Shown here one piece after another: positions 4,550 to 63,797 of a stretch of 64,000 nucleotides of DNA. Each line of letters opens with the position of its first letter. Within the stretch, counting starts at the first letter, position 1. The translations under genes were made by a program, and so were the position numbers. Below the pieces are notes generated by a model. The model was not told the origin of the DNA. It made no database searches and saw nothing but the letters and a program-made list of their open reading frames with translations. The DNA is taken from positions 62,001 to 126,000 of the IMG/VR virus record IMGVR_UViG_3300012277_000001. One strand, 5' to 3'. Source of the DNA: an uncultured virus (IMG/VR IMGVR_UViG_3300012277_000001) (lineage: Duplodnaviria > Heunggongvirae > Uroviricota > Caudoviricetes).

Positions 4550-4926
4550 ATCATCCCAACGAAGAACGTTATCAGGAAGTGCTGGAAAAGATCGTCAAGT
4601 TGGCCGACGAATCGTTCCCTGTGAAATGCGCCGGTCGCTTCACCCGTGGTTCTAACCAAGGTGAGGATGGCCAGCCTAAAGCCCACGTCGGCATCATGAT
4701 CGTACGGGCTGAAGATCACGAAATCATGTGCATCGTTCGCCTGTGGCTCGACGATGGTAAATTCGAGGCCATTTCGCCCGCCCTGCCCGGCACAACAGAC
4801 GCCGAGCAATGCAGCCAAATACAAACGGCGCTGCGGGCTGCGTATTTCCACGTATGCCGTGACGAAATCAAAGTTGTGGAACATGCACTGACGTTCGATG
4901 GCAGTCTGCCGGAGAAAGGCGAATGA
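4546..4926 (+). CDS. hypothetical phage protein, 126 aa
   Basis: GAGG SD and ATGA overlap at 4546. Confidence 0.8.
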   Translation: MNHPNEERYQEVLEKIVKLADESFPVKCAGRFTRGSNQGEDGQPKAHVGIMIVRAEDHEIMCIVRLWLDDGKFEAISPALPGTTDAEQCSQIQTALRAAYFHVCRDEIKVVEHALTFDGSLPEKGE

Positions 4927-5585
4927 TCCTCAAGTGGTACGAAGCAAAAAAGGAAATGGGTTTCTATTGGGAATTCGAGCGCTTGGGTGGACCCGGCACC
5001 ATCATTCAAGTTTTCGACGACGGCATGTGGGGTTTCATCGGTTCCGAAGAGGCGCACTTTTTTGACGAAGAGTCTCACGGCAGTAACTACTACGTGAAGG
5101 CCGTGCAGCCGGATATCGAACAAATGCTGTCGCAACTTTCGTACAGCGGCCTACGCAATTTCCATAACGCGAACGAGAAATCTAAATTTCCTGAAAAAGT
5201 CGAAGGCTATTGGCGCCAGCACGATGTGATTCCAACGTACACTGGCGAGAAGTGCAATATGAAAAACTTCATCGCCCGCGACGGTTCGGAATACCCGTGG
5301 CCGGTAGTGTGGGAAATTCCCGAATTCGACAAGCAACTGTTCATCGACCATCTGGCAGACACCGAAGACAATCTGGCAGAAGTCAAAAAGTATCGTGGCT
5401 TTAGCATTTGCCGATTGACCGGTGCAAATCGAGGCTGTAACGAATACGAGTACGGCGGCTGGCGCTGGCCCGGTGGCTTTATCGAGTACGTTCGCATGGG
5501 TGTTCCGCCATCGCGTGCATTCTACGCATTCATCATGCAGGTCGAAGAGGAAAACTGTAAATACCTTCCTACCTACAACCGTTGA
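4923..5585 (+). CDS. hypothetical protein, 220 aa
   Basis: ATGA overlap; C-terminal YRGFSICRL...EY..GGWRWPGGF..Y block looks like a conserved domain. Confidence 0.8.
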   Translation: MILKWYEAKKEMGFYWEFERLGGPGTIIQVFDDGMWGFIGSEEAHFFDEESHGSNYYVKAVQPDIEQMLSQLSYSGLRNFHNANEKSKFPEKVEGYWRQHDVIPTYTGEKCNMKNFIARDGSEYPWPVVWEIPEFDKQLFIDHLADTEDNLAEVKKYRGFSICRLTGANRGCNEYEYGGWRWPGGFIEYVRMGVPPSRAFYAFIMQVEEENCKYLPTYNR

Positions 5586-5593
5586 GGTAAGGT

Positions 5594-6466
5594 ATGAATC
5601 AGGATCGCTATGCGACCAACAAATGGAATGACCGGAACAGGAATCGCAATATGGCCTTAACCGAGGCGAAACAAGAACAGCTGCTGAACGGCTGCAATTC
5701 TTTGGAGCGTAAAGTTTTCGAGCACGTTCCTATACAGGAAGCGTGGGACGCGAAGGAAATCAACCGAGTGTTTCACGCATCCGGACAATCGTCAGACCAT
5801 CACAGGCTACGGGCCGCCCTCGGTGGCCTGAAAGACAAAGGGTTAGTTCGAGAAATGCGACGTGACCACTTTCAACGTACTGCTGTAAAAATCCGTGAAC
5901 TTCGTGAACCGCTGGAGCGTGAACGTCCCGCCGTTCCGAAACTCGGTGACAGTATCGACGTAAACGCGCTGCGTCGTGCTGTTGTCGTGCCCACCAAACA
6001 AACCCGCGTCGAAGAGCCGGTAGAAGTCGAAGTGGTGGCAGAAGAATCACTGTACGAAGAGCCTTCAGTGGAAGCCGCCGAAGAAGTGGAAACTGCTGTG
6101 AATACCCAAGTCGCGGAAGCCTGCGACGTAATTGAAAAAACCGCCAAAGAAATCGAAGCTTACGAAGGGGAAGTGAACATGGTTGTACAGTCTCAAGCAG
6201 TTGCCGAAACCGATCCGCTGATCCAACTGAAGGCACTGGCCGAAACTGCAATCAAAATCTCGCTGGCTTCGAAAAACAAACTCGAACAGCTGTCGTCGCT
6301 GGCCATGCAAATCGCGGAAGAAACCGACGACCAACTGCTGGCCCTCGGTGAGAAGATCGAACAAGTAACGGCGATGCTGGAAGAACAGCAACAAATCGAC
6401 GCCAAACAGATGAAGAAATTCCGTCAGTGGAAGGCCCTGATGCACAGCCTGTCCGAGGACGATTAA
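5594..6466 (+). CDS. hypothetical protein with winged-helix-like N-terminus, acidic linker and C-terminal coiled coil
   Basis: GAGG SD; LRAALGGLKDKGLVRE resembles a wHTH end; E-rich middle; heptad C-terminus. Confidence 0.75.
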   Translation: MNQDRYATNKWNDRNRNRNMALTEAKQEQLLNGCNSLERKVFEHVPIQEAWDAKEINRVFHASGQSSDHHRLRAALGGLKDKGLVREMRRDHFQRTAVKIRELREPLERERPAVPKLGDSIDVNALRRAVVVPTKQTRVEEPVEVEVVAEESLYEEPSVEAAEEVETAVNTQVAEACDVIEKTAKEIEAYEGEVNMVVQSQAVAETDPLIQLKALAETAIKISLASKNKLEQLSSLAMQIAEETDDQLLALGEKIEQVTAMLEEQQQIDAKQMKKFRQWKALMHSLSEDD

Positions 6467-6729
6467 TGCTTGATCCGTTTGCGTTTCTCGAAGGCGTGAC
6501 GGATGCTGAGCGGGCCGCATTTGAACTGGGCTTAGTGTATGCCGACCTGTGCATGGGAAGCAAAGGCCCTTGGATAATGCGGGACCGCCCGCATAAAACT
6601 CTGCATGACATGGCAGATTGTTTTCACCTTCGTTTCGTAATCAAACCATACACGGAGCTAGATAAAACTCCGTGGCCGATGATCGAAGTTATGGGCTATG
6701 TAAAAACGCCCGATTTGAGGCTGATCTAA
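6466..6729 (+). CDS. hypothetical protein, 87 aa
   Basis: TAATG coupling (MLDPFAFL...). Confidence 0.7.
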   Translation: MLDPFAFLEGVTDAERAAFELGLVYADLCMGSKGPWIMRDRPHKTLHDMADCFHLRFVIKPYTELDKTPWPMIEVMGYVKTPDLRLI

Positions 6730-7038
6730 ATGGCAAAGGTCGATCTGATACACCCGGAAAAAGGCGTACCGGGTAAACGTTATTGGGTGTATCGGGCCGA
6801 TCCTGATATGCTCGACCGCCCACAATGCGTGCAGTGCTACGAAAACGGAGCGTACGTCAAATATGTATGCCGCGACGGGGCAATGACTACGACGATGGTC
6901 CCGCGAGAAATGCAGGGCTGTCGGCTGGTTGAGATTGTGCCGCCCGATCCAGCGGACGTGCTGCGCTACATGAAACGCCAGCGGTTGATTAAACCGAAAC
7001 CAGATGCGGCAGAAACCGCAAATATTTTAGGCATCTAA
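6730..7038 (+). CDS. hypothetical protein, 102 aa
   Basis: GAGG SD, abuts upstream stop. Confidence 0.7.
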   Translation: MAKVDLIHPEKGVPGKRYWVYRADPDMLDRPQCVQCYENGAYVKYVCRDGAMTTTMVPREMQGCRLVEIVPPDPADVLRYMKRQRLIKPKPDAAETANILGI

Positions 7039-7050
7039 GGAAGTGTGTAA

Positions 7051-7623
7051 ATGGCTTTGATCGTAAGTCGTGAACAGCTGTACCGGGTTCTGAGTGACGA
7101 CGGACACATGGCGTTGTGGCCCGCACACACCGAGAAAGGGAAAACGCGGTACGCCCATGCATGTGTTGGCCAACCTTTCGCCCGGCTGCATGTTGGTGAC
7201 AAGGAACCGGCTTTTCTGTCGAACGAAAGTGACGTTATTTTCACAGGTCCGCACCTGAAGAAGATCGACGCGCTTTCCATCACCAAATTCAATCCGACGT
7301 ATGTTTACCCGAATGAAGAACTGATGACGTTCGGCAAACTCGACCGTTTCTACATGTCGTTGCTGAAGGCAATTCACCGCCCGGTAATCATTTCGCCGTT
7401 GAAGAAAGAACAGCAGTTCCGGGCACCTAGCGACGTTGACGGCACCGATCCACTCATTGACGAAATCTTTTACGATTACCTCAAAATCGACCAAGCTATT
7501 TACGTCGAGACGCTGTGTGGTGAACAAGGCTTCAACACCGATAAGTTGAAAGCCTACATGAAAGCGCACAACCACAACGCCGGTTCGCTGTGGACCATGC
7601 TGCGTAACAAGTGGGTCGAATAG
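7051..7623 (+). CDS. hypothetical protein, 190 aa
   Basis: TAAGGA SD; last gene before terminator. Confidence 0.85.
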   Translation: MALIVSREQLYRVLSDDGHMALWPAHTEKGKTRYAHACVGQPFARLHVGDKEPAFLSNESDVIFTGPHLKKIDALSITKFNPTYVYPNEELMTFGKLDRFYMSLLKAIHRPVIISPLKKEQQFRAPSDVDGTDPLIDEIFYDYLKIDQAIYVETLCGEQGFNTDKLKAYMKAHNHNAGSLWTMLRNKWVE

Positions 7624-7638
7624 CGGTCCAGAAACGAC

Positions 7639-7676
7639 AAAGCCCCCGAATCCATTGCGGAAACGGGGGCTTTTTT
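7639..7676. terminator. bidirectional intrinsic terminator at convergent junction
   Basis: AAAGCCCCCG-AATCCATTGCGGAAA-CGGGGGCTTTTTT between convergent genes. Confidence 0.85.
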
Positions 7677-7687
7677 ATGCCTGAAAT

Positions 7688-8134
7688 TTACCCATATGCC
7701 ACGGCGTGCTCATGGCCCTCTACGTGCGCCTCGATGTAGACCCGTGGCAGCATGGCCGTAGGCTCGCACAGGGCCTCAAAGAAGGCCGCTACGCTGTCTG
7801 ACGGGCGTTCCCATAGCCGGATGGTGCCCACGTCCACGAACACGCTGCTAGTGAGCAACGCGACGTTGGCGAAGTCTGCGATCCGGTGGCCATGGTTGCG
7901 CAAGTAACGACCCACGTCCGGGCAGGCCAGCGGCAGGTGCACGATGGCATCCAAGACCCCCAATTCTTCGAGTTCAAGTTTGCGCCATTTAAAATCAGCA
8001 GTACGGCACACCACAAGCGTTTTGCCATAAGCAGACCCTTGCGAAATGGTGGCCAGCAAAGCAAACGATTTGCCTGCGCGCTGAGGGCCGATGAACATTA
8101 GAGAACGTTGCGGAATTTTCAAGTCATGGTTCAT
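7688..8134 (-). CDS. small P-loop-like protein (thymidine-kinase-like Walker A, probably degenerate)
   Basis: FIGPQRAGKSFALL; GAGG SD; no clear Walker B. Confidence 0.55.
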   Translation of the reverse strand: MNHDLKIPQRSLMFIGPQRAGKSFALLATISQGSAYGKTLVVCRTADFKWRKLELEELGVLDAIVHLPLACPDVGRYLRNHGHRIADFANVALLTSSVFVDVGTIRLWERPSDSVAAFFEALCEPTAMLPRVYIEAHVEGHEHAVAYG

Positions 8135-8163
8135 ATGGGTTTCCTCTTAGTCGGGAATTAATT

Positions 8164-8607
8164 TCAGTTCAAAACGATTTTGCGGTTGGCTTTAGCCACG
8201 TACGAAACGTGAATGTAAGAACCGCGCTGTTGCAGAATGTCGAACGTCTGCTGCTGAAGCCATTCGAAAATGGCAGTGCTTTCGTTCGAAATCAGCGATA
8301 CTGCACAGCCCAAAACGTGCTGCTTGTCGTTGAGGTAGCGTGCCCAATTCGCCTCGTTGAAGGACAGGCCATTTTCGCGCAGCCAGTCGTAGTAACTGAC
8401 CTTGCAATACTCACGCTCAAGTGCGGGGCTGCGATACCAACTGACGATCCGAAAATCGAACTTTTCACGCAAAGGTTCCAGAATGTTTTCTGCAACTTTT
8501 TCGGCGGCCAGCAAAGCTTCACGTGGCGGCGTGTTGTCGATCTTGGATTTTTGGGCCAGCAGGTCAAAGCCTACGTCAAGGTCCGAGTAGTGTTCACTAA
8601 TCCGCAT
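8164..8607 (-). CDS. peptidase M15-family (M15_3-like) endolysin candidate
   Basis: ILEPLREKF..RIVSWYRS, QHVLGCAV and YIHVSY motifs; adjacent to membrane and lipoprotein genes. Confidence 0.75.
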   Translation of the reverse strand: MRISEHYSDLDVGFDLLAQKSKIDNTPPREALLAAEKVAENILEPLREKFDFRIVSWYRSPALEREYCKVSYYDWLRENGLSFNEANWARYLNDKQHVLGCAVSLISNESTAIFEWLQQQTFDILQQRGSYIHVSYVAKANRKIVLN

Positions 8608-8616
8608 TCCATTCCC

Positions 8617-9063
8617 CTACAGCGCAAGGCCTACAATGGCCAAAGCCTGCCAAAAGATTTTCTCAATTTTCCACCAACGCTGATCGTTTTGGTGGTCCTC
8701 AAACTCCTGTGCGTAGCGAGCGTAGTTCTCGTTAGCACGGGCCTCCTGCTGTTTCGCAATGTCTACCATCAAATTATATTGTTCAATTGTCTGGTTGTGC
8801 GCTTGCGCCAGCAGGTTCAGGCCTTTGGTGTTTGCGGCTGCCTGTTTGGTGTAATCGGTAAGCTGGTCTAACTGGGAAACAGTAAAACCAGCATAATCGA
8901 CGTTGTTAACTACCAGCGGCGTCGGGTCCGGCCTTTGTGGTAGGGACGCCTGCAACGTAATTTTTTCCAACTTGTTCAGCTGCATGTTCGACTGCGGCGG
9001 CTGTGGCATTTGGCTTGAGCACGCCGGGAGGAACAATGATAGAAGGAGAATTACCCATTTCAT
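8617..9063 (-). CDS. lipoprotein, spanin candidate
   Basis: MKWVILLLSLFLPAC lipobox-type signal, coiled coil, hydrophobic C-terminus IFWQALAIVGLAL. Confidence 0.7.
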   Translation of the reverse strand: MKWVILLLSLFLPACSSQMPQPPQSNMQLNKLEKITLQASLPQRPDPTPLVVNNVDYAGFTVSQLDQLTDYTKQAAANTKGLNLLAQAHNQTIEQYNLMVDIAKQQEARANENYARYAQEFEDHQNDQRWWKIEKIFWQALAIVGLAL

Positions 9064-9403
9064 TTTGTGCTGCCTCGATTTTTTCCAGTGCAGTGCGCAC
9101 AGCGAGAGGCATGGGCGGTTTGCCGATCATGGAATCAGCAGCAATACCGATTGCGAAATAGGTGGCTTTACCAACCCCCGGTTCCAGAATCACGGTCGTG
9201 ATGAATGCGGCAACTGCCCCCGCAAAAACAAGCACCGTTCCCTTCACATCGTCAAGCCAGTAAGAACTGAGCTTGATCCCCTCACGTTTGCACTTCCAAA
9301 TCCAGTTGACGATCACCCCGGCCAACGTGCAGATGAAGAACCCACCTGCGCTGTCGAGCGGAATTTCAATTGCGTTTTCGATGCTCTTAATCAGGAATTC
9401 CAC
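8906..9403 (-). CDS. holin-like membrane protein (2-3 TM segments)
   Basis: GTG start with GGAG SD; hydrophobic segments GGFFICTLAGVIVNWIW, VLVFAGAVAAFITTVIL, TYFAIGIAA. Confidence 0.65.
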   Translation of the reverse strand: MEFLIKSIENAIEIPLDSAGGFFICTLAGVIVNWIWKCKREGIKLSSYWLDDVKGTVLVFAGAVAAFITTVILEPGVGKATYFAIGIAADSMIGKPPMPLAVRTALEKIEAAQNEMGNSPSIIVPPGVLKPNATAAAVEHAAEQVGKNYVAGVPTTKAGPDAAGS

Positions 9404-9406
9404 GGT

Positions 9407-9676
9407 CTAATCTCCCGCACTTTTCCACGCGTTGATCGCGCTGTTCATATCTTTAGACACGGTTTTTTCGACCGGCTTCAGAATCTCTTCTACCTGTTTC
9501 TGTTGCTCAATGATCGGCGCGGTTTTCACCTGTTCTTCCAACCGATCACCTTTGTACGTGTTGGCTTCGGGTTCTGGTTTGGTGCGACGTGCAAACAACG
9601 CAGCCGCCAGCGCCAGCACGAACATCATGCCTGCGATAAACCACTTCCCGTATTTTTTGATTGTTTCCATCGTCAC
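9407..9676 (-). CDS. single-TM membrane protein (i-spanin or antiholin candidate)
   Basis: KKYGK followed by WFIAGMMFVLALAAALFA and a short helical tail; GTGA overlap with upstream ORF. Confidence 0.6.
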   Translation of the reverse strand: MTMETIKKYGKWFIAGMMFVLALAAALFARRTKPEPEANTYKGDRLEEQVKTAPIIEQQKQVEEILKPVEKTVSKDMNSAINAWKSAGD

Positions 9677-9843
9677 AGACCCTGCTTGTTGAATGGAGTT
9701 TCCGGCCCGCGCCCTTTACCTGCGTTCATGCCTTCGTCGTCGATGGTATCTTGACGATTCAGAATTTTCCGCTTGCTGAGGCGTTTCATGCGGCGCTTAA
9801 CAGCGTCGTTTTTCACGGGCTTTGCATCAATCCATACAATCAT
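9673..9843 (-). CDS. small basic protein, 56 aa (absent from ORF track)
   Basis: MIVWIDAKPVKNDAVKRRMKRLSKRK...PFNKQGL; GGGGAG SD; stop overlaps next start. Confidence 0.65.
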   Translation of the reverse strand: MIVWIDAKPVKNDAVKRRMKRLSKRKILNRQDTIDDEGMNAGKGRGPETPFNKQGL

Positions 9844-9865
9844 AAAATCTCCCCCGATTTTAAAG

Positions 9866-9892
9866 AAAAGAAAGGGGGCACTAGGCCCCCTA
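9866..9892 (-). terminator. intrinsic terminator
   Basis: Minus strand AGGGGGC-CTAGT-GCCCCCT then TTCTTTT after the 553-aa gene. Confidence 0.75.
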
Positions 9893-9909
9893 TCTAAGTC
9901 TGAAACAGA

Positions 9910-11571
9910 TTACGCGCTAGGCGACAGCCACGAAACCTGTACCAGAATGGCAGCGGCCACGCCCAAGCTGATCACCAGTTGATTTTCGTTGGTGAACGAA
10001 ATGTCATCAGGAGTGAACACTTTGTTGGTGGCTTTGTCCACGCACTGCACGATTGGCCAGCGGAAACCGATGTTGTGAGTAACGGTGTGGCTGGTCAGCG
10101 AATCAGCGCCGGAATCATACGCGAAGTACGATTTCGAAACCTGAAGTTGCAGGTTGTTGATTACCTGCGCAACAGGCGCGATATCGCTTTCGGTGATGAA
10201 ATCAGCGGTAGCGGTGGCCAAGGCAGCCGGGGTAACGTAAGCGTTGGACAGATCACCAACTTTCACACCAGCGGCGCTAACCACGATGGATGCGTCAGCA
10301 GCTTTTACCGAAACAACGTCGCCGGTTTTTTCGATACCGTCACCAGCAGAAACACCGGAGATACCGCCGAATTCAGCCCAGCTGGAACCATCCCAGCGGA
10401 TGAACACACCGGCTTGGCGATTCCACACCAGTGCACCCGGACCAGCGACAGAAACGTCGTAGGCCAGTTCGGTGATGGCGCCAGCAGCGTCTACGACAAC
10501 GATATCACCAGCAGCGGCAGCAACGCCGGAACTGAAGGTGGTGCCGTCAACGTACACGTAGCGACCGGCAACGCCAGCGAACTCGGTTTCCAGTGCCAGA
10601 ACGTCAGCTTGGAAATCCAGACCGGCGAGGGCATTTTCGATGGCGTTGGTTACGGATTGGGTCGAAGCCAAACCGGCAACAGCGGTCGAAATTTCCTGAG
10701 TTACGTCAGCGCTTTTCGCGTAGTCGGTCAGTGCAGCAACGACCAGCGCGTTTACCTCGTCGGCGTCTTGGAAATCGGCAACAGCGGTTTCGATGGCGGC
10801 GGTAACTTGGGCAGCAGTTTGCAGACCCGAAACAGCAGCAGAAATCGCAGCAGTTTGCGCGGTCGGGGTCACGTAAGTGCCCGACAGGTCGCCAACTTTT
10901 ACACCGTTCGCATCGACCACGATAGAAGCGTCAGCCGCTTTTACCGAAATGGTATCACCGGCTTTTTCGAGGCCGTTACCAGCAGTGATGCCAGACAGGC
11001 CACCAAACTCGGCCCAGTCAGTACCGTTCCAGCGATACCATGCAGCGGCTTCGCGGTTCCAAGTCAGGGCGCCGGGACCGGCAGCCGAAACGTCGTAGGC
11101 GTTGGCGGTGATAACACCGGAAGCATCGACAACCACGATATCGCCAACGGCAGCGGAAACGCCGGTTGCGAAGGTGGAACCATCGACGTAAATGTAACGA
11201 CCGGCAACGTTGGTGAAATCGCTTTCCAGACCGAGCACGTCAGCTTGGAAATCGAGGCCAGCCAGTGCGTTGTCGATTGCAGCCCGCATTTCGTTATCGG
11301 AAACGAGGTCAGCAACGGCGGTGCTGATTGCGGTGGTAACGTCAGCACTTTTCGCGTAAGCGGTCAGCGCATCGTTCAGTTCTTCTTCGGAAATACCGGC
11401 GCCGATTGCACCAGCGGCAGTACCGTTGAAGAACTTGATCACTTTGGCAACGTTATCGTACCAAACGCGACCTTCGATCAAACCAGCGCCCGTAGGGTCG
11501 GCGCCCAGTTTTTCCAGTTTCAGGTCGAGAATTTCACCAGCGACCCGGAGTTGACCATTGATGTTAGCCAT
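9910..11571 (-). CDS. virion fibre/structural protein with internal ~168-aa duplication, 553 aa
   Basis: Ala/Gly/Val-rich, strong codon bias; LT.YAKSADVT...LAGLDFQADVL...YVTP occurs twice, 636 nt apart; C-terminal HTVTHNIGFRWPIVQ fibre-type motif. Confidence 0.8.
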   Translation of the reverse strand: MANINGQLRVAGEILDLKLEKLGADPTGAGLIEGRVWYDNVAKVIKFFNGTAAGAIGAGISEEELNDALTAYAKSADVTTAISTAVADLVSDNEMRAAIDNALAGLDFQADVLGLESDFTNVAGRYIYVDGSTFATGVSAAVGDIVVVDASGVITANAYDVSAAGPGALTWNREAAAWYRWNGTDWAEFGGLSGITAGNGLEKAGDTISVKAADASIVVDANGVKVGDLSGTYVTPTAQTAAISAAVSGLQTAAQVTAAIETAVADFQDADEVNALVVAALTDYAKSADVTQEISTAVAGLASTQSVTNAIENALAGLDFQADVLALETEFAGVAGRYVYVDGTTFSSGVAAAAGDIVVVDAAGAITELAYDVSVAGPGALVWNRQAGVFIRWDGSSWAEFGGISGVSAGDGIEKTGDVVSVKAADASIVVSAAGVKVGDLSNAYVTPAALATATADFITESDIAPVAQVINNLQLQVSKSYFAYDSGADSLTSHTVTHNIGFRWPIVQCVDKATNKVFTPDDISFTNENQLVISLGVAAAILVQVSWLSPSA

Positions 11572-11595: not shown

Positions 11596-12387
11596 TTATG
11601 CTGGGAGATTGGGCGTTTCCACGTCGATGATATCGACGTATTCTGCGCACCGTTTCAAAAGGGTGGCCAGCGGTTCATCCCCTTCGATCACACCGGAGTA
11701 ACTGAGGTTACAGGTGGAATGATTTTTTACGAGGGTCGGTAGGCGGCGGCAAGCAATGGTGTTGTAATAACGAATCCTTTCTTCAAACATGAACACGCCC
11801 GTTTTGTAGAAGTAATCAAGGGCGTAATTGTCCACGTACATAACCATGCGGTTGCTGTTGGAGCGGTTGGTACTGCACCGATCTTCAACGAAATCTGATC
11901 CTAACAGGCAGTCGATTTCATAGAGTTCGTACATGCAGTTTTGCAGCGTCGAACCAAGGGTGGCCATGATGATCGGGTAGGCCTCAAGGTGCGACTGACC
12001 TTCAACGCTGCGTATCGTGGTTTGGAAAGCCTTACGTGTGTGTGCGTTGACGGCCCACCAAATCTCCACAAACTTTTGCGTGAAAAGATCGGGGTTTTCC
12101 ACAAAGACTTGGCGATGCCAATTCTGCAATCGTTGCTCGGCGTCCAGCGTTGCGTCGATTTCGGCGCGGGTCAGTGTGGGGCGATTCAAGAAAATGGACT
12201 CAACTTCGTGTGCCCATTTGCTGTAGGAGTTGAACAGCAGAAGCAGAGTTTCCTTTGCCACTTCGCTGAACTGGTTTTGCTCGTTTATAACCACGTTGAG
12301 CATGTACGACTTTGCAGCGTAAAAATGCTCAAGGGAATATGCGGCTACAGAACGAAATCGAATGTTGTTTTTGATGAAAGGTGCCAT
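11596..12387 (-). CDS. hypothetical helical protein, 263 aa
   Basis: ATG at 12387 with GAGG SD. Confidence 0.75.
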   Translation of the reverse strand: MAPFIKNNIRFRSVAAYSLEHFYAAKSYMLNVVINEQNQFSEVAKETLLLLFNSYSKWAHEVESIFLNRPTLTRAEIDATLDAEQRLQNWHRQVFVENPDLFTQKFVEIWWAVNAHTRKAFQTTIRSVEGQSHLEAYPIIMATLGSTLQNCMYELYEIDCLLGSDFVEDRCSTNRSNSNRMVMYVDNYALDYFYKTGVFMFEERIRYYNTIACRRLPTLVKNHSTCNLSYSGVIEGDEPLATLLKRCAEYVDIIDVETPNLPA

Positions 12388-12394
12388 ATGAGCC

Positions 12395-12877
12395 TCAAAC
12401 GCCGCGTGGAGGATTACCACGCTGCATGCCTATTCCAAGCATTAAGCCTGTAACTTGACTTTGTTTATCGCTTACGTCAGAAACTGTGCGCAGAATACGT
12501 TCCGAATTACGTTCAAGTGATTCAAGCAAGTTCAGTAGCTCGGCACGTTCCCTCGGGTCTTCCTTACCTAAGTTGAGGCGAATGTCATTCATCTGCGTCA
12601 TGATGGCATCGCACACAACCGCCAAGGACGTTAGGGACTGCGTATCCGGGTGTTTCACCAGATCGTGAATTTCGTCCAAAACATCCTGCATCTTCTTTAT
12701 TGCATCAACACTCTGAAGGTAGCTGCTGTCGAAATTTTCCGCACGCTTCCGCAAAGACTTTACTTCTTCTTGCAGTGGCAGAACGTAAAACCAACCAACG
12801 GCCAGTAATATCAGGTTGAATCCAATCGCCAAGGAAACCGGGATCGGACTGGAGTAAAGAACGTCAATCGCTCCCAT
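12395..12877 (-). CDS. membrane-anchored coiled-coil protein, 160 aa
   Basis: N-terminal TM LAIGFNLILLAVGWFYVL then heptads. Confidence 0.75.
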   Translation of the reverse strand: MGAIDVLYSSPIPVSLAIGFNLILLAVGWFYVLPLQEEVKSLRKRAENFDSSYLQSVDAIKKMQDVLDEIHDLVKHPDTQSLTSLAVVCDAIMTQMNDIRLNLGKEDPRERAELLNLLESLERNSERILRTVSDVSDKQSQVTGLMLGIGMQRGNPPRGV

Positions 12878-13151
12878 CGGCGCACCTATCTGTGGTTGGG
12901 GTGAATCTTACTGTCACAGCACCTTCGTAGTCGCTGATGGTTATTTTTGTTATTTTAGGCTGCTTAATCACTGTGCACGCTTCACCGGCTCCCGGCAAAT
13001 CGTTACAGATTTTTGCGACACATTCGTACGTTTCACGAACCGTTAAGACTTCGGCGCGGTCCCAGTTGAACGATAGTACCGCCCAAACCAGAACCCCGGC
13101 GATAGCCAGAATGAAAAACTTGCTAATCGTGTTCCGCGTGAGATTTAACAC
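12864..13151 (-). CDS. small membrane-anchored Cys-containing protein (start uncertain)
   Basis: TM FFILAIAGVLVWAVLSF followed by four Cys; GTG at 13151 chosen. Confidence 0.6.
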   Translation of the reverse strand: MLNLTRNTISKFFILAIAGVLVWAVLSFNWDRAEVLTVRETYECVAKICNDLPGAGEACTVIKQPKITKITISDYEGAVTVRFTPTTDRCADGSD

Positions 13152-42072: not shown

Positions 42073-45000
42073 CCGAAAGTAACCCTGTAGGATTTCTGCC
42101 CCAAATCACGGCCGACAGTGCGGTACACGTACCAGCTAACATCGACCCCGTTTTGCGATTGTTTGTGCACGGCTGGAATTGGCGAACCATCAGGGCCTGC
42201 CCAATCGTCGGTTGGTCTTCCCGCCGCATCGTAAAACTTCACGGCGCCGAATACGATTGGCACCAGAACGTAGCTGTAACCGTCGAAATCATCACGGAAT
42301 TGCTGATCGGAAATCATGATGGATTTCTCAAACAACGTGGAATAATCAACGGACGCCGATTGGCCCGTGCAGTAAACCGGGCTGCTGCCCAACACACGTA
42401 CCGTTTTAGTTCCTTGCACAATCGTGTTTTCGTACGTGAAATCGGCAGAAATGGTAAACGTCTGATTCACCACCGCGTTCTGCACGAACACCGTGCCGTC
42501 ATCCAGAATATGCAGGTTCAGGCCGTCAGTGATGATTTGCCAGTTAGGCGTCACCGGAATGCCTTGTCCTTCAGTGATCCCAGTTTCAGGCGTATAGGCT
42601 TCTGCCGAATAACGCTCTTTTACCCCGATTTGAATTGTGTCCGGGCCGGTAATGCCGAGGCCGATGTAGGCCGCGTCAACAGGCACCACGACAACGGACA
42701 ACGAATCGGTAACGGTGTACCCGCCGCAACTCCAAGTGGCGGTAATCGTGAACGTCATATCGCGGTTTGCTTTGCACGTGACGAACCCGTTTTCATCGAC
42801 AATTACGTCGTCGTTATCTACCGTCCAATCGGAGGAAACCAACAATTCGTTCTTGCACTGCTTGAACAGAATGGCTTGGCTAAACGAAGCAATTTGCGTC
42901 GAATAAATAACGGCGTTACCGATGATGCGGCTGGACAGCGGAACGTCAGGGCCTTTTGGTGCCACATAACGAACAGTTACCGCGTATTCTGCTGTTTCTT
43001 GGAAATACGTCGCACGAACCATGACCGGCATATCGAAATCAACAGGTCGGCCAGTAACCACGCCATAACCGCCAATGTCAGCAGCCACAAATTCAGCGTT
43101 CGAATCGAGCGTGTAGATTTCCCATTGCGGGTGGACCGTGGCAAAAGAACCGTCTTCATACATTGCGGTCGCCGTTAATACGATTCGATCCAGCGAATCA
43201 ACTGTATCAGGGCCGGTGATCATTAGGCCGGTGATGCTATTCGTGGCACTGACGCAAACGACGGTTTTCGTCTGCTGGTAAACCCGTTGATTTTCCATGT
43301 AGGAAATTTCGAGGTTGATCAGAGATTCTTCGGGCTTGTCGATTAGCAATTCACCGTCGATCAATGTCGCCCAATCCGATACAGGGTTAAGGGTCCAAAT
43401 AGGATCAATGGGTTTGATTCGACCGTCCGTGTATTGCGCGTATGCCTGATAAACGTTTACGTTGCCCTCACGTACGGAATCCGGACCCATGATCAGCAAT
43501 TGTTGCAGCGTGATCGGCGGACGTTGGACCGTCACAGAAAGCATCTGCGTCATGCCCTGATACTGCGCACGAATTTCAACGGTTAGCTGATCCTTGACCA
43601 TACCGGCGTTCAACGTGCCTTGTGGTGTGATTTCGAATTCAGTGGTGAACCATTCGGGCGTGACGTAGGTAGACGAACCATCGCTCATGATTGCCAGACA
43701 CGAATAGCTGGCTTTTTCCATTTCATTAACGAGGGTAGGCCCAGTGATCGTAAGGCTAGCCAGTTGCAGGAATTCCGGATAAACCGTGGCTTCGTGCTGC
43801 GCTGTCATCACAACCGAGCGGAAACCGTATTGAGCCGTGATTTCTACTTGCGTTTCGCCGTTTACAAGCGTGGTGCTAGCCAGACCATTGTCGATAACGA
43901 CAGCAGGACTGCTCGAATCCCAGTACGACAGAACATCAGCGCTCGAACCATCCGAGAAAAATGCAGTTGCATATAGCTGCGTTGCCGAACCTTCTTTCAA
44001 CCGATTTTCACCGCTGATGGAAAGGCCAGTAAGGTACACATTCGGATCAACGAAACGCAGCTTCACTTTTTTGGATGCAGCGTAAGAAATTCCGTTGATA
44101 TTCAGTTTGCAGCTGAGCATTACTTCCTGATCTTCCAGAAGGTTACGCCCGTGCAACGTGTTGCCCACGAAATAGGCGTAGGGGCTAACGACCTTCAGGT
44201 CTACCGGGACAACATCACTGCCCGTCGAATGGAAAACCGTTACCGAATAATCGCCAGATTGTGTGGAAAGGATTTCATCCGGCCCGTTGATCTGCACCAA
44301 CCGGATATCCTGCATACCGAGGCGAACAGTAACGTTCTTGGTGATAGTTTTGCCACGAATAACGGCGGTCAACGTCACCAATTGATCTTGTGTGAAACCA
44401 GCAAACGTAACGTGGCCCTGCCGGATGGAGACATTGCCCGTATGCGTCGAGGTCCATTCGTTGCTTTCGAATTCCTGCCCTTTGGCCACAATGCGGTAGG
44501 TCGCGGAATCGCCGCTGTTGACTTGATCAGGTCCGTCGATGGTGAACGTCGCGTTTTCCAGTGAGTAATCTGCATCACAAACGAGACGGCGCACAGGCTG
44601 TTTGTACACCACACCTTGAAGGCCGAAATCTTCTTTGTTTTCGATTTCAATACTGAAGAAGAACTGGTCGATCACCAGATTAATAGGCGCCAACGAGAAA
44701 AACGCCGAGAGGAAGCGATCCTTCAGCGTTGTTCCGGTGGGCAACACGATATTTTGGTCAGCAGGAACTTTCTGCATTTCGAGGTTAATGTGCGTGACTT
44801 TGTACCACGTACCCCCGTCAATGCGCAGCGCGCCCAACGGTTCCTCGTAAAACGAAATGTAGTCCTCGGTGTAAAGTTCATAGGACACCACGCGGCGCCC
44901 CAAGATGTAGGAAATCAGGCGGATTGCAGAATCACGGCCCGTCACTTGGTGAATGAGCGGAATCATGTAAATGGAATTGTACAAACGTTCCGGATTCACA

Positions 45001-56553: not shown

Positions 56554-56775
56554 TCACGGGCAGCGAACCGTATCCTGAATGTCCATTTGCCGCTTCTCCG
56601 CGCCTTCCAAAGGCGTGTCGATCAGTCCGCTCTTCAGCCGAACTTTACGGCGTTTCTTTTTACCGGTGGCTTTGAGCGGTCGCCCATTTTTCACTTGGTC
56701 AAAACGTACATCAGGGATAGCGTCCCAGCGTTCGTCGGACCCAGCTTTGCCAGCCAAAGAAATCAGGAGTTCCAT
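56554..56775 (-). CDS. small basic leader-bearing protein, 73 aa
   Basis: TAATG coupling; starts MELLISLAG. Confidence 0.75.
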   Translation of the reverse strand: MELLISLAGKAGSDERWDAIPDVRFDQVKNGRPLKATGKKKRRKVRLKSGLIDTPLEGAEKRQMDIQDTVRCP

Positions 56776-57200
56776 TATTTGCCACTTCCGAAGTCAATGA
56801 AGTTCGGAGCGCGACGTGCAACCGACGACGCAATTGCGTAATCGGTGCCCCGCACTTTCATTACGCGAGATTCAAGGTTGAATGGTTCTACATCGTCCTC
56901 AAAAATCACGAATGCTTTTGCAGGGTTCGGAATATGCAGGAACTGGCCCATGGTCGGTATCGCATACACGAAGGTAACGCGCTGGTGATTGCGGTCCTCG
57001 ACCTGTACAACAACCGGCACATGATCTTTATCCATGTCGCGAACCTGTTTGATATCGGATTTCTTGCGATCTTCGAAATCAAAAACCTGTGGAAAAACGT
57101 TGGCAAACAAAGAGCTATACGACCGCTTGAGGATGGTGCGCACACCCTCCGCAATACGTGCGCTATTGTCCGTGGCAGCCAATGCAAGCATCAGTTCCAT
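56775..57200 (-). CDS. leader-bearing hypothetical protein, 141 aa
   Basis: GAGGA SD before ATG 57200; starts MELMLALAA. Confidence 0.8.
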   Translation of the reverse strand: MELMLALAATDNSARIAEGVRTILKRSYSSLFANVFPQVFDFEDRKKSDIKQVRDMDKDHVPVVVQVEDRNHQRVTFVYAIPTMGQFLHIPNPAKAFVIFEDDVEPFNLESRVMKVRGTDYAIASSVARRAPNFIDFGSGK

Positions 57201-57278
57201 TATAATTCCTCTACGACGCGTCCGTCCTATAATTGAGGCCGGATTTTTAGGCCCGGCGTATACAATCAAATTACCGTT

Positions 57279-60020
57279 TTAGTAACCGGCATCGTCTTTG
57301 TAACCTTCGTGTGCATCGGAAAAATCCTGATACTTTTCTTTCAGGTATTCCTGCTTCTCTTCGATATCGGACATGTGTTCTTGGATATCTTCCTCTGAAA
57401 TGTTTGGCGTCACATAACCAAAGCTGAAATCATCCGGATCGTGTTCGTCAGGATCGCCGAGGAACGTCACAATTTGCCGCATGGCCTGAAGACACTTGGC
57501 ACCCTGATCAACCAGTTTAATGTTGAGGCTTTCGACTTTTTCGCGTGCAGCTTCGCGAGCGTCTACATACGCCTCTTCGTAATCCGGATGGTCAGCATCC
57601 ATCGCAGGTTCGACCATGTTTTCGTTAATCCATTCGTCTTCTTCTAGGGTCGGCGGTGGATCAAGGTTGTCGGCCATATACTCCAATGAAGTAAGGATGG
57701 TTTCAACCGACGCCAGTTTCGCCAATTCCTTCAAGATCAAGCGGTGGTTCTGAATCAAAACTTCTTGCGGCAGTGTGTACAAAGATTCAGGTGCCGACGA
57801 CATGAGCAACGGCATATCGTTTGTCACGTCCACCGATTCTTCGCCGATGCGAATCTTGCTCAAACAACTGGCAAGATTATTAAATGCGCCATTGCGGTTG
57901 TTACGGCTGGTGCGCTGCGTGTAAATTTCCGCGAGCTTGGCGTTCGATACCTCTTCGATTTCGAACTTATTCGCCAAGCTTTTCGGGTGCGGCAACAGCT
58001 TGCAAGCGGCCTGCGCAACTTGCAGCACGAATTCGATATCCTGATTACCGGGTTCCAGTTTTGGACCATCGTAAGCCAACAACGTCGGCATAACCTGATT
58101 CAGGAACACATGCACTTCGGATTTGAAAAGCGTGGTTTCCGAATACAGGTGCATGAAACTCTTCATCGAGAATTTCACGAATTCCTTGAGGTGGTCGAGG
58201 GTCCAGCCACCACGCAGTTCTTGGCTGAATGCTTCAACCAAATCATCATCTTCCTCAAGCCACTTTCGGACCGCATCGAATGTGTGTTTGAATTGTTGGG
58301 CCTGATAAGGCTGGGTCACGACAATTTTCAAGATTTCCATCTTGATATCCGACATGAAACGCTGGGCCTTTCCGTCATTGATCGAATCAAATGCTTTGAA
58401 TGCTCGGCGCCCTGCCAGCATGTAGACAGCTTTTGCCGGTTGAATTGCGTACCAGTCATCGGCGCTGGTGTAGACCGCGTTATCCAGCAAATAACACAGA
58501 AGCAATTCAGGATGTTCGGTTTTTTCCAGCAACTCTACCAAGTGCGGCCCGCGTTCCTTTTTACCATCCTTGTCGATATGGTCGAGGATTTCGTAGGCTG
58601 CTTCCTGATAAACGTTCTTGCCCATCAAAGGCATGTAACGGGCGGCGCTGGCAATGGTGTGTAGCGTATCGCGCAGCTTTGGCATTTCGTCCAAAACTTC
58701 TTTGGACGGAACCGGGATTTTACCCGACAGAATTTCGTTAACGGCCCATGCCCCATCGAACACATGATCGTCTTCTGAAGGTTCTGCGATGAACGCCAGC
58801 TGCTTGAATGCGCTTACGTTTCCGGAGCGTGCAAATTTAATTGCGTTATCCGAACGCAGGTATTCGTGGTTAATGCCGTCGAGTCGATGCAGCGCCCCCG
58901 ATTTGCGCGCCACGTAACCGAGGCTAGCGCTCATGTCGCGGGTCAGTGCAGACGTTTGCATTTCGCTTTTGACAAATTCGCTGTCTTTGACCATTTCTAC
59001 AATGGCTTTCAGTTGCCCTTTCTTGAGTCCGTGCGCTTGTTCCAGATAGGACACGATGCCAATGGAGGCGCCGCGCCCCTCTTCGGAAATGCTACCCGGA
59101 GCATCCTTTTCTAGGGCTTCACCTTTGTGGACTTTCTCCATCAGCTGTCGTACGAATTCTTCGGCCTGCGTCAGGTCGTCCAATGCGTCTTCGAATGTGA
59201 TTTCGTTTGGATCGGATGGTGTGTGGTGTGCATGGCGGTCGCCCGAATCATCGTACAGTTTCGGATTCAAAGTGTACGCGCCAGCCTTCGCCTTTTCGTT
59301 CAGGCGGGCAATGAATTGCTTCAGCGTGCGATCAAAACCGGGAACAGGGTTGCCGTAAATGCGGGATTCGCGGCGATACAAAACGTCCTCTTCGCCGTCG
59401 TCACTCAGGAACGGTTTCACCAAGCAACGACACAGCGGTTTTTGAATGTTCAGGTCATTGGAACGGATGGCATAAACCACAAACGTTCCTTCGGCTACGT
59501 CTTCCGCCACGTGGCGGTTGTATTGGCCGGGATTCCCACGGTTTACAACACCGTCATCGAGGCGCATGCAGCTTTGGCGATCCCAATCACGGCCCGTGCT
59601 CATGCCGATGATATCGTACGGGTGACAGCTGATAACCATCTGCACCAAATCAGCAGAGCTATTCTGCAATTGTGGATCGTTGTCGAATGCCTGTTTCGCC
59701 AACGCATCTTTGGCGATCACCTTGCCGATGTTGTAAACGTTTTTCTGTTCCTTATCGTCGATCTTGACGCACTTTTTAGCCAGATAATCCGTGGCCATGT
59801 AGCCCGCTTTTTTCAAAGCATGACGCACAGCTGGCGGAATGGTGAAGCTGTGTTTCTGCGGCTTACCGATTGGAACATACAGGCGATAACCTTTCTTGCC
59901 CGGCCCATGAGGCATCATGGATTGCAAGGCCTTCACAGCCGGGGAATTGCGGTTCCAATTACGGCGGTATTTCAATGCCGTGCGCATCGACACGGCGGCA
60001 ACTGCCAATTCAAGTTTCAT
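57279..60020 (-). CDS. large leader-bearing protein, 913 aa, acidic C-terminus; paralogue of 60030-61958
   Basis: Starts MKLELAVAA; SCHPYDIIGMSTGRDWDRQSCMRLD. Confidence 0.85.
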   Translation of the reverse strand: MKLELAVAAVSMRTALKYRRNWNRNSPAVKALQSMMPHGPGKKGYRLYVPIGKPQKHSFTIPPAVRHALKKAGYMATDYLAKKCVKIDDKEQKNVYNIGKVIAKDALAKQAFDNDPQLQNSSADLVQMVISCHPYDIIGMSTGRDWDRQSCMRLDDGVVNRGNPGQYNRHVAEDVAEGTFVVYAIRSNDLNIQKPLCRCLVKPFLSDDGEEDVLYRRESRIYGNPVPGFDRTLKQFIARLNEKAKAGAYTLNPKLYDDSGDRHAHHTPSDPNEITFEDALDDLTQAEEFVRQLMEKVHKGEALEKDAPGSISEEGRGASIGIVSYLEQAHGLKKGQLKAIVEMVKDSEFVKSEMQTSALTRDMSASLGYVARKSGALHRLDGINHEYLRSDNAIKFARSGNVSAFKQLAFIAEPSEDDHVFDGAWAVNEILSGKIPVPSKEVLDEMPKLRDTLHTIASAARYMPLMGKNVYQEAAYEILDHIDKDGKKERGPHLVELLEKTEHPELLLCYLLDNAVYTSADDWYAIQPAKAVYMLAGRRAFKAFDSINDGKAQRFMSDIKMEILKIVVTQPYQAQQFKHTFDAVRKWLEEDDDLVEAFSQELRGGWTLDHLKEFVKFSMKSFMHLYSETTLFKSEVHVFLNQVMPTLLAYDGPKLEPGNQDIEFVLQVAQAACKLLPHPKSLANKFEIEEVSNAKLAEIYTQRTSRNNRNGAFNNLASCLSKIRIGEESVDVTNDMPLLMSSAPESLYTLPQEVLIQNHRLILKELAKLASVETILTSLEYMADNLDPPPTLEEDEWINENMVEPAMDADHPDYEEAYVDAREAAREKVESLNIKLVDQGAKCLQAMRQIVTFLGDPDEHDPDDFSFGYVTPNISEEDIQEHMSDIEEKQEYLKEKYQDFSDAHEGYKDDAGY

Positions 60021-60029
60021 GTTTTGTTC

Positions 60030-61958
60030 TCAGTGAAAGCCGTCGTTTTCGGGCGCCGGTTGGAATTCCAGATCGTCAAGGTCGCCCAGTTCATCCATGA
60101 GGGCGTCTAAATCTTTTTCATGCTGTTCGGCAGATTCGAGATAGTGCTTTGCCCAGTTCTCCAGCAGCGAAGGGTATGGACCCGGATTCTGCTTAGCAAT
60201 CTTGACCATGAGACTTTTCGTCCACGGGAAATCTCGCAAATACATGGAAGGGCCGAGGCCATTAGTCTGCGCATCTTGGCGAAGACGCAAACCAAGAACC
60301 GTGTTGAAATCCTGTGTGTTGACTTTCATCATGTTTTCGAAAACATGTTTATCGGTCAGTATCATGCGGTTGGCATCAACGACAATCGACATGTCGGCAG
60401 CTGGCCATGATTTGTCCACCGCGCAAAGCAGGGCGCGCCCATCCTCGGCACAGTAACGGTTGAACAAGACGGTATAACCCGCGTCTTGCAGGAAGTTGTA
60501 GATGCTTTCGTCGTAATAGAAATCGACTGGCATTTTCTTCGCAAGTTTCAACGAATTTTGCTGCACGTTGTGGTTATGGATGGTCTTCGACTGGTTCAGC
60601 ATCTTGCACAGCATACCGACCTGTTGACGCAACTGCACGGACCCTACGAATTTCGACTTCGCGAGTTCTGGTGTGAACTTGTACATGCCAGACAGGAACC
60701 CACGCCAAACAAGGCCCACATCACGTGCAGGAATTTCGTCGTTGATTACCGACAGCCAACGAGAATCAAACGGTGCTGCTTTGTTAATGCAGAACTGATA
60801 GTTGTCACCTTCGGTATCGTCATGCAGCGACCAATCGTACATTTCGCGTACGACACTTTGCAGCTTATTCGATTTCTTGACCAGTTCATCGCGCCACGCG
60901 AGAGGCGCCAGAACTTCGACCAGATCCAACAAAACGCCATCTTCCAAATGCTTGTCGATATAGGAACCAAATTGCCGTGCCGTAATCTGCTTGCGGTTCT
61001 CGCCATAAAGTGTGCTGATTTGGTAAGCGGCTTCGCCTTCGTCACCGTTGTAAATGTTGAGTGCATTTTCCATGAACACGCCGAGCCAGCGCTTGTCCTC
61101 CATCAGGAATTGACGCAGGCGAGGTTCATTGAGTTTCAGACTACGCAGCAAGTTGACTTTATCTTCGATTTCGTCGAATTTACCGACAATGTGATCGGTG
61201 CCCTGCCCATCGTTATACAGGCCGTCGATCAAGTGGTACATGCCGGAAACGGCCCCTGCGTTCACCTTGCGCAGCCAGCGAGAAAGTGTTTCCTCGAAAC
61301 CGGGAATCGGCGTGCCGTAGACTTTGGAACCAATGCGGAAAAGAATGTGCCCGTTTGGACCCACGAAAGGTTTGATCAGCAGGCGCGCATGAGGCTTGTT
61401 GATATTGGTATCTTTCGGCGAGATTGCGTAAGCAACCAACGTGCCTTCGGCGATATCGTTTTTGACGATGTGCTGGTTAATACCGCCCCGCGATTTGCCC
61501 GGCTGATCCAGACGCATACAGCTGGTTTGGTCCCAACGGCGCCCAGTGCTCATGGCCAGAACGTCGTACGGGTGGCACGAAACCACGCACGTGAAATCAT
61601 CTTTGTGTGCGGCGCGTTGCGGGTCGTTCATGAACTCTTTCAGAAGTTCGGCATCTTTCAGCAATTTGCCGATACGCATTTGGCGCTTACCTGTCGAGTC
61701 AACGGCGATACCTAGCACGTAATCGTCAACCGTATAACCCTTGCTGGTCAGGGCCATGGTGATCTTTTCCGGAACCGTGATTTTGGTCTTAACCGGCTTG
61801 ATCGGCATGTACAGGCGATAAGCGTTTTTCTTCCGCTTTTTGTTCTTTGGCAGGAAGCGCTGGATTACCTGCACACCCAGCCCGTTTTTGTTCCAGTTTT
61901 TCATCAAGGGCCGGGCCACACTCAAGGGCACAGCAGCCAGCGCCAATTGCATTTCCAT
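60030..61958 (-). CDS. large leader-bearing protein, 642 aa; paralogue of 57279-60020
   Basis: Starts MEMQLALAA; SCHPYDVLAMSTGRRWDQTSCMRLD. Confidence 0.85.
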   Translation of the reverse strand: MEMQLALAAVPLSVARPLMKNWNKNGLGVQVIQRFLPKNKKRKKNAYRLYMPIKPVKTKITVPEKITMALTSKGYTVDDYVLGIAVDSTGKRQMRIGKLLKDAELLKEFMNDPQRAAHKDDFTCVVSCHPYDVLAMSTGRRWDQTSCMRLDQPGKSRGGINQHIVKNDIAEGTLVAYAISPKDTNINKPHARLLIKPFVGPNGHILFRIGSKVYGTPIPGFEETLSRWLRKVNAGAVSGMYHLIDGLYNDGQGTDHIVGKFDEIEDKVNLLRSLKLNEPRLRQFLMEDKRWLGVFMENALNIYNGDEGEAAYQISTLYGENRKQITARQFGSYIDKHLEDGVLLDLVEVLAPLAWRDELVKKSNKLQSVVREMYDWSLHDDTEGDNYQFCINKAAPFDSRWLSVINDEIPARDVGLVWRGFLSGMYKFTPELAKSKFVGSVQLRQQVGMLCKMLNQSKTIHNHNVQQNSLKLAKKMPVDFYYDESIYNFLQDAGYTVLFNRYCAEDGRALLCAVDKSWPAADMSIVVDANRMILTDKHVFENMMKVNTQDFNTVLGLRLRQDAQTNGLGPSMYLRDFPWTKSLMVKIAKQNPGPYPSLLENWAKHYLESAEQHEKDLDALMDELGDLDDLEFQPAPENDGFH

Positions 61959-62485
61959 TATTTCAATAGCTCCAAAAAGAGTTTGATCAGCGGACCATTA
62001 CCTTTGCCCATCCACTCTACGGTGAATTGCTCCGCCAACCATTCGGTTTCGTTTTTCGCTGCATATTCGCTCGGATTTCCAAGCTTTTTGCGCAGGTCAC
62101 GAAGGGTCGATTTGTAGTGGCCCCACGCATCGTCGTCGTGTCCGCATTCGTGAGCGATTGTCGCGTGTATGCAATGTCCGTATTCGTGGACGATCAACGC
62201 GTCAAAGGCTTCGTGTGGGCCGTCGTGCACCACAAACCCCGGAGGATTAGCCTTGCCACATTCGCGCTGTGCATCGGCCACCGTGCCACGTGTAAACGCG
62301 GTTGTCAGACGAATCTTTCTGGTTTCCCGGTCGAATTCGGAGGTCAGCCGGTCGGTGTATTCCACACCTTTCAAAAACTTCGCAGCTTTCGGAAAAATTA
62401 AACCCAAAGATGCCAGCTTCTTCTTAACGTGCTTGGCAACTTCCGGCGATACGTCAGTTGAGGCCATCGCCAGCATCATTTCCAT
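61958..62485 (-). CDS. leader-bearing zincin-like metallopeptidase, 175 aa
   Basis: True start at TGATG overlap (MEMMLAMAS); IVHEYGHCIH and SEYAAKNETEWLAEQF. Confidence 0.8.
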   Translation of the reverse strand: MEMMLAMASTDVSPEVAKHVKKKLASLGLIFPKAAKFLKGVEYTDRLTSEFDRETRKIRLTTAFTRGTVADAQRECGKANPPGFVVHDGPHEAFDALIVHEYGHCIHATIAHECGHDDDAWGHYKSTLRDLRKKLGNPSEYAAKNETEWLAEQFTVEWMGKGNGPLIKLFLELLK

Positions 62486-62874
62486 CAGCTGAAATCCTTC
62501 GCAGGCTTGTAGACCATGAGCAAACTGCCCCATTCGTCTTTGAACAATTTCTTGGTTTCTTCCAACGAGGCCTTGAGATTCAACGCCGGGCGGAAACCGT
62601 TTTTGTAGAACACATGCAGCGAAGCGACACTGGATACCTGCGCCCCGATATCGCTTTTGTATTTCCGCACAATTCCCTTCAATAGGAAATCGCCGTGGCC
62701 TTGGCCTCGATGTTGTTCGTCGATCACGTAATCGGTAACGCTGTGTTTGCACGGCGAGAATTCCCCGCCAGTGCGCACGCAAATGTAACCAAACTCGGAA
62801 CGGAATTCCGTACCAAAATGCTCGCCCCGATCCGTGATTTTAATCGAGGCGGCCAGCGCCAATTGCATTTCCAT
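62485..62874 (-). CDS. leader-bearing GNAT acetyltransferase, 129 aa
   Basis: Starts MEMQLALAA; IDEQHRGQGHGDFLL motif A; FYKNGF motif B. Confidence 0.85.
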   Translation of the reverse strand: MEMQLALAASIKITDRGEHFGTEFRSEFGYICVRTGGEFSPCKHSVTDYVIDEQHRGQGHGDFLLKGIVRKYKSDIGAQVSSVASLHVFYKNGFRPALNLKASLEETKKLFKDEWGSLLMVYKPAKDFS

Positions 62875-62879
62875 TTCTT

Positions 62880-63797
62880 TTACTCCAAACCGTGCAGTTC
62901 GCGCTCTTCGCTAGTCATCCAACGCTTGCGCACATAATCCAAGAATCCTTTAGTGTCAACACGCAATTTACGTTTAACACGTTTGAGTTTCTCAAGGAAT
63001 TGCAAATCAGAACCCTCTCGGGCCGCATCTAACAGCCGGTTGAAGTCGCGCACAGCTTGGCTACCAACGTCCCACGTGTTTATCAGGTGTTTAATTTGGC
63101 GAGCAACACGGTCCCGATTTTTCTGCTCTTCCTTTGTGCGGGCGCCTTTCAGGTACTGTGTGTAGTGTGCTTCGCTGCCCTTGAAGACGATTTGTGACGC
63201 CACGTACCAAGCTTCCAACTCACCCGTACTGTAGGGCTGGAAAACCTTCTGCCCGAACTTACGTTTCTTTTTGTCCGAGACTTCCAGCTTGATTTTCTTG
63301 CGTTTATCGAGGTTCATAAACGCATTTATATCGGCGTACTGGAACAGTTCTATACCGTTCCTTTTTGCAAGCAATGCCAGCGTAAGTGAATCGTTGGATT
63401 TGAATTTACCACTCTCTTTCATAAAGTGGATTTCTTTCACGTACCGGATGCACGGGATGTACATTTTGTTTGAGAACAGTCGATCTTCTTTTTCGTCATT
63501 GTCCACATACTTTTGATCGGCCCAGTAATCAACGGCTTTGATCTTATAGTTCGCGTTCATCTTCTGCCCGTCGAGCACAAAGATAACGTGAGTACCACCA
63601 GCCTCATTCCTGAAGTAATCGGAATGCTTGGAGCGGGCAAGGCTCAGAAAATATTGAGCATCGCCGAATCCTGATTCAACGCCTTCGTTGGTGGCTGCCA
63701 ACTTGAACTTATCGTTCTTCAGCGCAGTAATTGCGTGCTCCATCAGGATCAAGTGATAGAGCACACTGGAACCGGCCAGCGCCAGCATCATTTCCAT
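62880..63797 (-). CDS. leader-bearing ADP-ribosyltransferase-fold candidate, 305 aa
   Basis: Starts MEMMLALAG; LYH, FLSLAR, IFVLD and EKEDR in the order expected for an ART core. Confidence 0.6.
   Translation of the reverse strand: MEMMLALAGSSVLYHLILMEHAITALKNDKFKLAATNEGVESGFGDAQYFLSLARSKHSDYFRNEAGGTHVIFVLDGQKMNANYKIKAVDYWADQKYVDNDEKEDRLFSNKMYIPCIRYVKEIHFMKESGKFKSNDSLTLALLAKRNGIELFQYADINAFMNLDKRKKIKLEVSDKKKRKFGQKVFQPYSTGELEAWYVASQIVFKGSEAHYTQYLKGARTKEEQKNRDRVARQIKHLINTWDVGSQAVRDFNRLLDAAREGSDLQFLEKLKRVKRKLRVDTKGFLDYVRKRWMTSEERELHGLE

Follow-up and report, generated by a model that had tools for sequence, protein, structure and literature searches.

In phage T4, a capsid targeting sequence stands on IPI-III and on the Alt propeptide and is cut by gp21 (PMC9026906, in the part available), and Alt itself is an ADP-ribosyltransferase (ART) of the R-S-E clade (PMC5512222, section 9). 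Packaged ARTs, GNATs and zincins have already been proposed in the available parts of PMC5512222, PMC7824862 and PMC9503650 (for the last, sections 3.3.1 and 3.7.1). Here we compare with these systems three neighbouring minus-strand genes of a 308-kb jumbo phage, which are predicted to encode an ART-fold protein, a GNAT acetyltransferase and a zincin metallopeptidase. The window, that is, the whole stretch of 64,000 nucleotides analysed, covers positions 62,001-126,000 of the 307,943-bp virus record IMGVR_UViG_3300012277_000001. A first-pass annotation had read the three genes from their motifs as a leader-tagged kit of protein-modifying enzymes similar to Alt. All its motifs are present, and the three folds and, by proxy evidence, the reading as tagged head cargo were supported; the Alt analogy and the fixed kit, as stated, were not. 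Actually, the unit is a larger tagged array in which the three genes are interchangeable, shuffled cassettes, and the ART belongs to an uncatalogued, DarT-related family. The features are the following, the pLDDT being the predicted local distance difference test score:

62880..63797, minus strand: ART-fold protein of 305 aa, from a phage family without catalogue entry that is related to DarT
63774..63797, minus strand: leader of the ART gene, 8 residues, predicted head-targeting and prohead-protease site (residues 1-8 with pLDDT <50)
63303..63773, minus strand: ART domain, about residues 9-165, with H15, S52, R55, E102, E104 and R106
62883..63302, minus strand: C-terminal part of the ART, residues 166-305, basic (isoelectric point 10.1) and mostly helical, barely covered by fold matches
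62485..62874, minus strand: GNAT acetyltransferase of 129 aa, leader at 62851-62874
61958..62485, minus strand: zincin metallopeptidase of 175 aa with a lethal-factor/PPEP-type fold, leader at 62462-62485
60030..61958, minus strand: next tagged gene, 642 aa, with a homologue (Atu_ph07 gp394) in the virion
56554..60020, minus strand: three more tagged genes of the same array (913, 141 and 73 aa)

Each of the three genes begins with an 8-residue leader of ME(M/L)xLA(L/M)A-like residues. A regular expression for this leader matched 11 open reading frames (ORFs) of the genome, versus a mean of 0.13 (maximum 2) in 30 shuffles and of 0.29 (maximum 8) with 299 permuted patterns, and a position-specific scoring matrix added two weaker ORFs at the same locus. 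All the leader ORFs but one lie at genome positions 118.5-130.9 kb, and the array extends beyond the end of the window. The genes are tightly packed, as had been described, with a gap of 5 nt between ART and GNAT, a 1-nt stop/start overlap between GNAT and zincin and another 1-nt overlap between zincin and the 642-aa gene. All three are under purifying selection against their relatives, the proportions of non-synonymous and synonymous differences being 0.04-0.29 and 0.56-0.83 in all 8 orthologue pairs. Promoters and terminators were about as frequent as expected by chance, and no RNA holder was listed.

Regarding the destination of the tagged proteins, the putative scaffold contains 15 copies of the leader core A[TVL]A[SA], versus 0.74 expected. 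The major capsid protein, the portal and the head protease (assigned by homology) have one copy each close to their N-termini, although these single copies are not significant alone. Cutting the PaBG capsid protein at the leader-core motif would remove a computed 20.6% of its mass, which agrees with the 'about 20%' reported (PMC7412058); of the PaBG virion proteins, gp83 begins with the leader motif and gp191 does not. In T4-type phages the leader is replaced by an LxE type. Among 146 distant ART homologues a rough regular expression assigned 59 leaders to the T4-type LxE class and 20 to the Lu11 type, and in 49 of 107 ART homologues the seventh residue before the YH motif is the E of the T4-type LxE, in register with the end of the Lu11-type leaders. 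In Atu_ph07, all ten printed proteins with an M[KR]WxxLxE leader match masses in the available part of the virion table (PMC6102473, Table S5). The same source places gp394, the homologue of the 642-aa gene (55.10 kDa, LxE leader), in the virion with 18 peptides, and the mass of gp407, the probable Foldseek match of the ART, is also in its table. The scaffold copies, the LxE replacement and the tagged virion homologues of Atu_ph07 therefore make head loading likely, by analogy with these phages; what points to the leader as a putative head-protease site is the motif enrichment here and the mass agreement in PaBG. Two further proteins (genome positions 211344-212195 and 186635-187330) are enriched in the predicted protease motif and are candidate head-core proteins.

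The ART had been the weakest of the three calls, and its predicted structure has the split beta-sheet fold of ARTs. Its motifs are LYH (13-15), FLSLAR (50-55) and EKEDR (102-106), and an extended pattern derived from the protein itself matches 1 of 371 ORFs. The active-site positions are conserved among 120 sequences in strand 1 (H15, 114 of 120), strand 2 (S52, 120) and strand 5 (E104, 120), as are E102 and R106 (120 each) and R55 (119). The strand-1 residue is Arg in 4 sequences and His in ours; T17 is found in 108, but our protein has I17, that is, HxI instead of the HxT of the family. Tpt1, DarT and DUF952 make up the top seven or eight of its fold matches. Against a profile of 76 DarT sequences it aligns over 135 collinear columns, which place E104 at the conserved glutamate of DarT (controls had E values of at least 0.19), and the HxT and catalytic Glu of DarT are in register with the family. 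The essential loop arginine of DarT, R51, whose mapping we took from the numbering, aligns to a gap, and R55 or R106 might stand in for it. Compared with the H-H-h triad of Tpt1/KptA, the ART has S and E at positions 2 and 3, with 27 columns aligned to a shallow profile. Judged from sequence and model, this H/S/E protein is nearest to enzymes that modify DNA or RNA, not protein.

Pfam, PHROGs and NCBIfam gave no name for the ART, its profile had no match to PDB sequences at E <= 10, and PF01885 (Tpt1/KptA) had no match in the genome. PF14487 (DarT) matched neither our protein nor, at E <= 0.05 among the matches listed (25 of 28 families), any of the 120 members; among those matches Pfam gave only PARP, in 3 members (best E 2e-3), and PADLOC gave scattered single matches. 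The ESM Atlas placed the ART at 0.91-0.93 to viral clusters, one of them auto-named DarT, with low shared-feature counts that make this a lead only. The family, for which no model exists, comprises 1,926 representatives, and a single phage can carry as many as five paralogues. No description of the leader or of the ART family was found in the literature as far as available (PMC13326640 contained no relevant information), and the supplements of PMC7824862 and PMC9503650 may list the family; in the accessible part of the latter supplement, Lu11 appears only in the genome list and Lu11 protein accessions were not found. The match to the orthologue Lu11 gp212 (12001-12914 of the Lu11 locus) is split in two towards the C-terminus of that protein, owing to a frameshift or a sequencing error. 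In the Alishewanella phage Slickus01, nine LxE-leader genes lie near the terminase (4866-11468 of the locus), five of them ART-family paralogues.

The leading alternative, which we consider possible but unlikely, is that all three proteins are injected protein-modifying enzymes and that the ART, like Alt, modifies host RNA polymerase or other proteins. In its favour, arginine-specific protein ARTs typically carry the ExE motif. The major capsid protein is 95% identical to that of HRDY3 and 85% to that of Lu11, and this is therefore a Lu11/HRDY3-like, Pseudomonas-type jumbo phage; its genome has a match to sigma-70 region 2 and no match to RNA polymerase beta, so it depends on its host, a point in favour of this alternative and also of the best explanation given below. 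No eraser gene was found in the genome either, and Iyer et al. predict such a role for the ARTs and GNATs of jumbo phages (PMC7824862, section 3.4.4). However, the Alt/VIP2 clade has Arg in strand 1 where our protein has His, and the fold matches, the collinear match to DarT and the basic C-terminal domain all point elsewhere.

In order to compare the arrays, we took 19 loci holding an ART and dropped duplicates (L003, L011 and L013) and five distant loci (L015-L019, with no GNAT or zincin matches), which left 11 arrays, compared with flanks of 8-12 kb and two of the loci incomplete. GNAT was found in 7, zincin in 4 and all three genes in 3; they were contiguous in 2 and had the order seen here in none. 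A fixed three-gene module is therefore rejected. In Lu11 and HRDY3, other GNAT and ART families take their place. It is doubtful, and less probable than an Alt-like role, that the proteins are packaged but act within the head with no host target, the zincin on internal proteins and the other two by acetylating or ADP-ribosylating packaged DNA or core proteins. Zincins of this kind have been proposed to act in autoprocessing or maturation (PMC5512222, section 8), and the leader indicates entry into the head, not ejection. Nevertheless, the patchy presence of zincin and GNAT and the expansion of the ART family (three paralogues in Lu11, five in Slickus01) are more in keeping with an arms race than with assembly, and the fusions of the ART family to Acb1 and Nudix also speak against it. 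Among 26 long homologues scanned, we found Acb1 in 2, Nudix in 1, GNAT in 5 (4 of them above the cut-off, the fifth weak) and ART-PolyVal in 2, both below the cut-off; these fusions count for the best explanation given below. Finally, the leader is very improbably a translation or recombination element of ordinary cytoplasmic late products, because its codons vary synonymously, its peptide motif is repeated inside the scaffold and its type tracks phage lineage, even if the cassette-like shuffling and JA11, where both ART homologues are leaderless (a point against head cargo as well), would suit such an element.

The best explanation overall, with a probability of about 0.6, is that these are cassettes of a tagged array whose products are loaded into the head, trimmed and injected as early conflict enzymes. 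In this scheme the genes would probably be expressed late and their products loaded through the leader; the head protease would, with slightly lower probability, cut behind an Ala near position 8; and injection with the DNA and action in the first minutes would be somewhat less assured. From the predicted chemistry, the zincin would cut a host defence protein and the GNAT would acetylate a host protein or a small amine. The ART would use NAD+, its target being most likely nucleic acid, at even odds, less likely protein, and with a small chance NAD+ hydrolysis or other; its basic C-terminal domain would bind nucleic acid. More tentatively, large phages may have turned a widespread DarT-related family into a virion-delivered weapon that ADP-ribosylates nucleic acid at infection, with swappable, protease-matched tags. 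If so, the modification would mask the incoming genome from restriction or stall host or rival DNA, DarT, known as a toxin directed against phages, would have its role reversed, giving a phage-side counterpart of this defence toxin, and the interchangeable tags would let phages swap cargo. From the tag one can predict the uncharacterised genes whose products would be delivered ahead of all phage transcription, which yields a short list of candidates for anti-defence screening.

Regarding the other two enzymes, bare HExxH and RGxGxG-type motifs are common (7 and 8 of 371 ORFs) and therefore prove little alone. The GNAT carries HRGQGHG (55-61) and FYKNGF (89-94), which correspond to the acetyl-CoA loop R/Q-x-x-G-x-G and the downstream Y-x-x-x-GF-type motif. 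R56, G57, G59, G61, Y90, K91, G93 and F94 are invariant in 22 sequences, PF00583 scores 20.7 bits, exactly at its cut-off, and the profile matches three PDB chains, two of them named acetyltransferases (E 9e-4 to 7e-3). The zincin carries HEYGH (100-104), Y141 and EWLAE (148-152), and its predicted structure has the lethal-factor/PPEP-type fold with HExxH and the third-ligand Glu and Tyr. An extended pattern, derived from the protein itself, matches 1 of 371 ORFs; PF07737 scores 18.7 bits, below its cut-off of 27.4, and is listed for 4 homologues, and one homologue is fused to MuF. We took the ATG at 62485 as its start and rejected a longer 274-aa frame from the TTG at 62782.

Among the remaining tagged genes, the 913-aa and 642-aa proteins (window 57279-61958) are paralogues that have in common a conserved domain, without family assignment, over their first 260 aa or so, and have 2-4 copies per close relative; a naming attempt for the 642-aa protein in the ESM Atlas gave no name. 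Past the end of the window, at genome positions 127945-130136, lie a leader-tagged ART-PolyVal gene (PF18760 over its cut-off) and a leader-tagged topoisomerase IB-like gene, the latter named after the annotation of Lu11/HRDY3; it would be unusual for a topoisomerase to be packaged. A Nudix-like protein, its motif read by eye, has a longer leader variant (genome 61584-62126). In PaBG, the 2H/LigT protein PaBG_00228 (42633-43166 of the locus) adjoins the prohead protease and has a leader-like start, and is a candidate packaged enzyme against the cyclic-oligonucleotide-based antiphage signalling system (CBASS).

Over the whole genome, the observed/expected ratios of CCWGG and of many palindromic hexamers (ATCGAT, CTGCAG, GTCGAC, CCCGGG, GGGCCC) are close to 0. 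Lu11 shows the same depletion and PaBG a far weaker one; such extreme restriction-site avoidance suggests largely unmodified DNA. Self-avoidance of the DarT-type motif TCTC (ratios of 0.80 here, 0.73 in Lu11 and 0.90 in PaBG) was dropped as evidence because the depletion is too weak.

Compared with the T4 targeting sequence, the leader is likewise short, marks unrelated and variable proteins at their N-termini and ends in a predicted head-protease site, and in T4-type phages the same ART family bears LxE tags. However, here the tag is predicted from sequence, ends in Ala-x-Ala and not in Glu, and belongs to a different protease lineage. With Alt, the ART shares the fold, the predicted packaging and a myovirus that depends on host RNA polymerase, but it has the H/S/E signature and no Alt-type protein among its top fold matches, and its substrate is probably different. 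DarT (PF14487) and Tpt1/KptA are its best fold matches, and the profile alignment with DarT includes YHxT, RS, DG, W and the catalytic Glu; unlike DarT, the ART has no Pfam match, a shorter loop without a clear R51 equivalent, ExE instead of QxE, an extra basic helical domain and no DarG/NADAR partner (PF01661 and PF08719 have 0 matches in the genome), and it is phage-borne and tagged. The repertoire of ART, GNAT, zincin, Nudix and 2H is that of the polyvalent and MuF-fused effectors (PMC5512222 and PMC9503650, section 3.7.1, in the parts available), and ART and zincin domains of these families occur in such fusions, whereas here each domain has its own tagged gene, and the ART is of another type than the H-Y-D ART-PolyVal, a separate gene in the same array. 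The zincin shares with the lethal-factor/PPEP-type zincins the fold, the HExxH and the downstream Tyr and Glu in register, although it is a minimal 175-aa domain with 17% identity and no toxin delivery domains. Taken by themselves, GNAT and zincin are ordinary components of a repertoire that earlier papers had proposed; what is new is the DarT-related ART family, and the whole is a variant of the known packaged-effector strategy.
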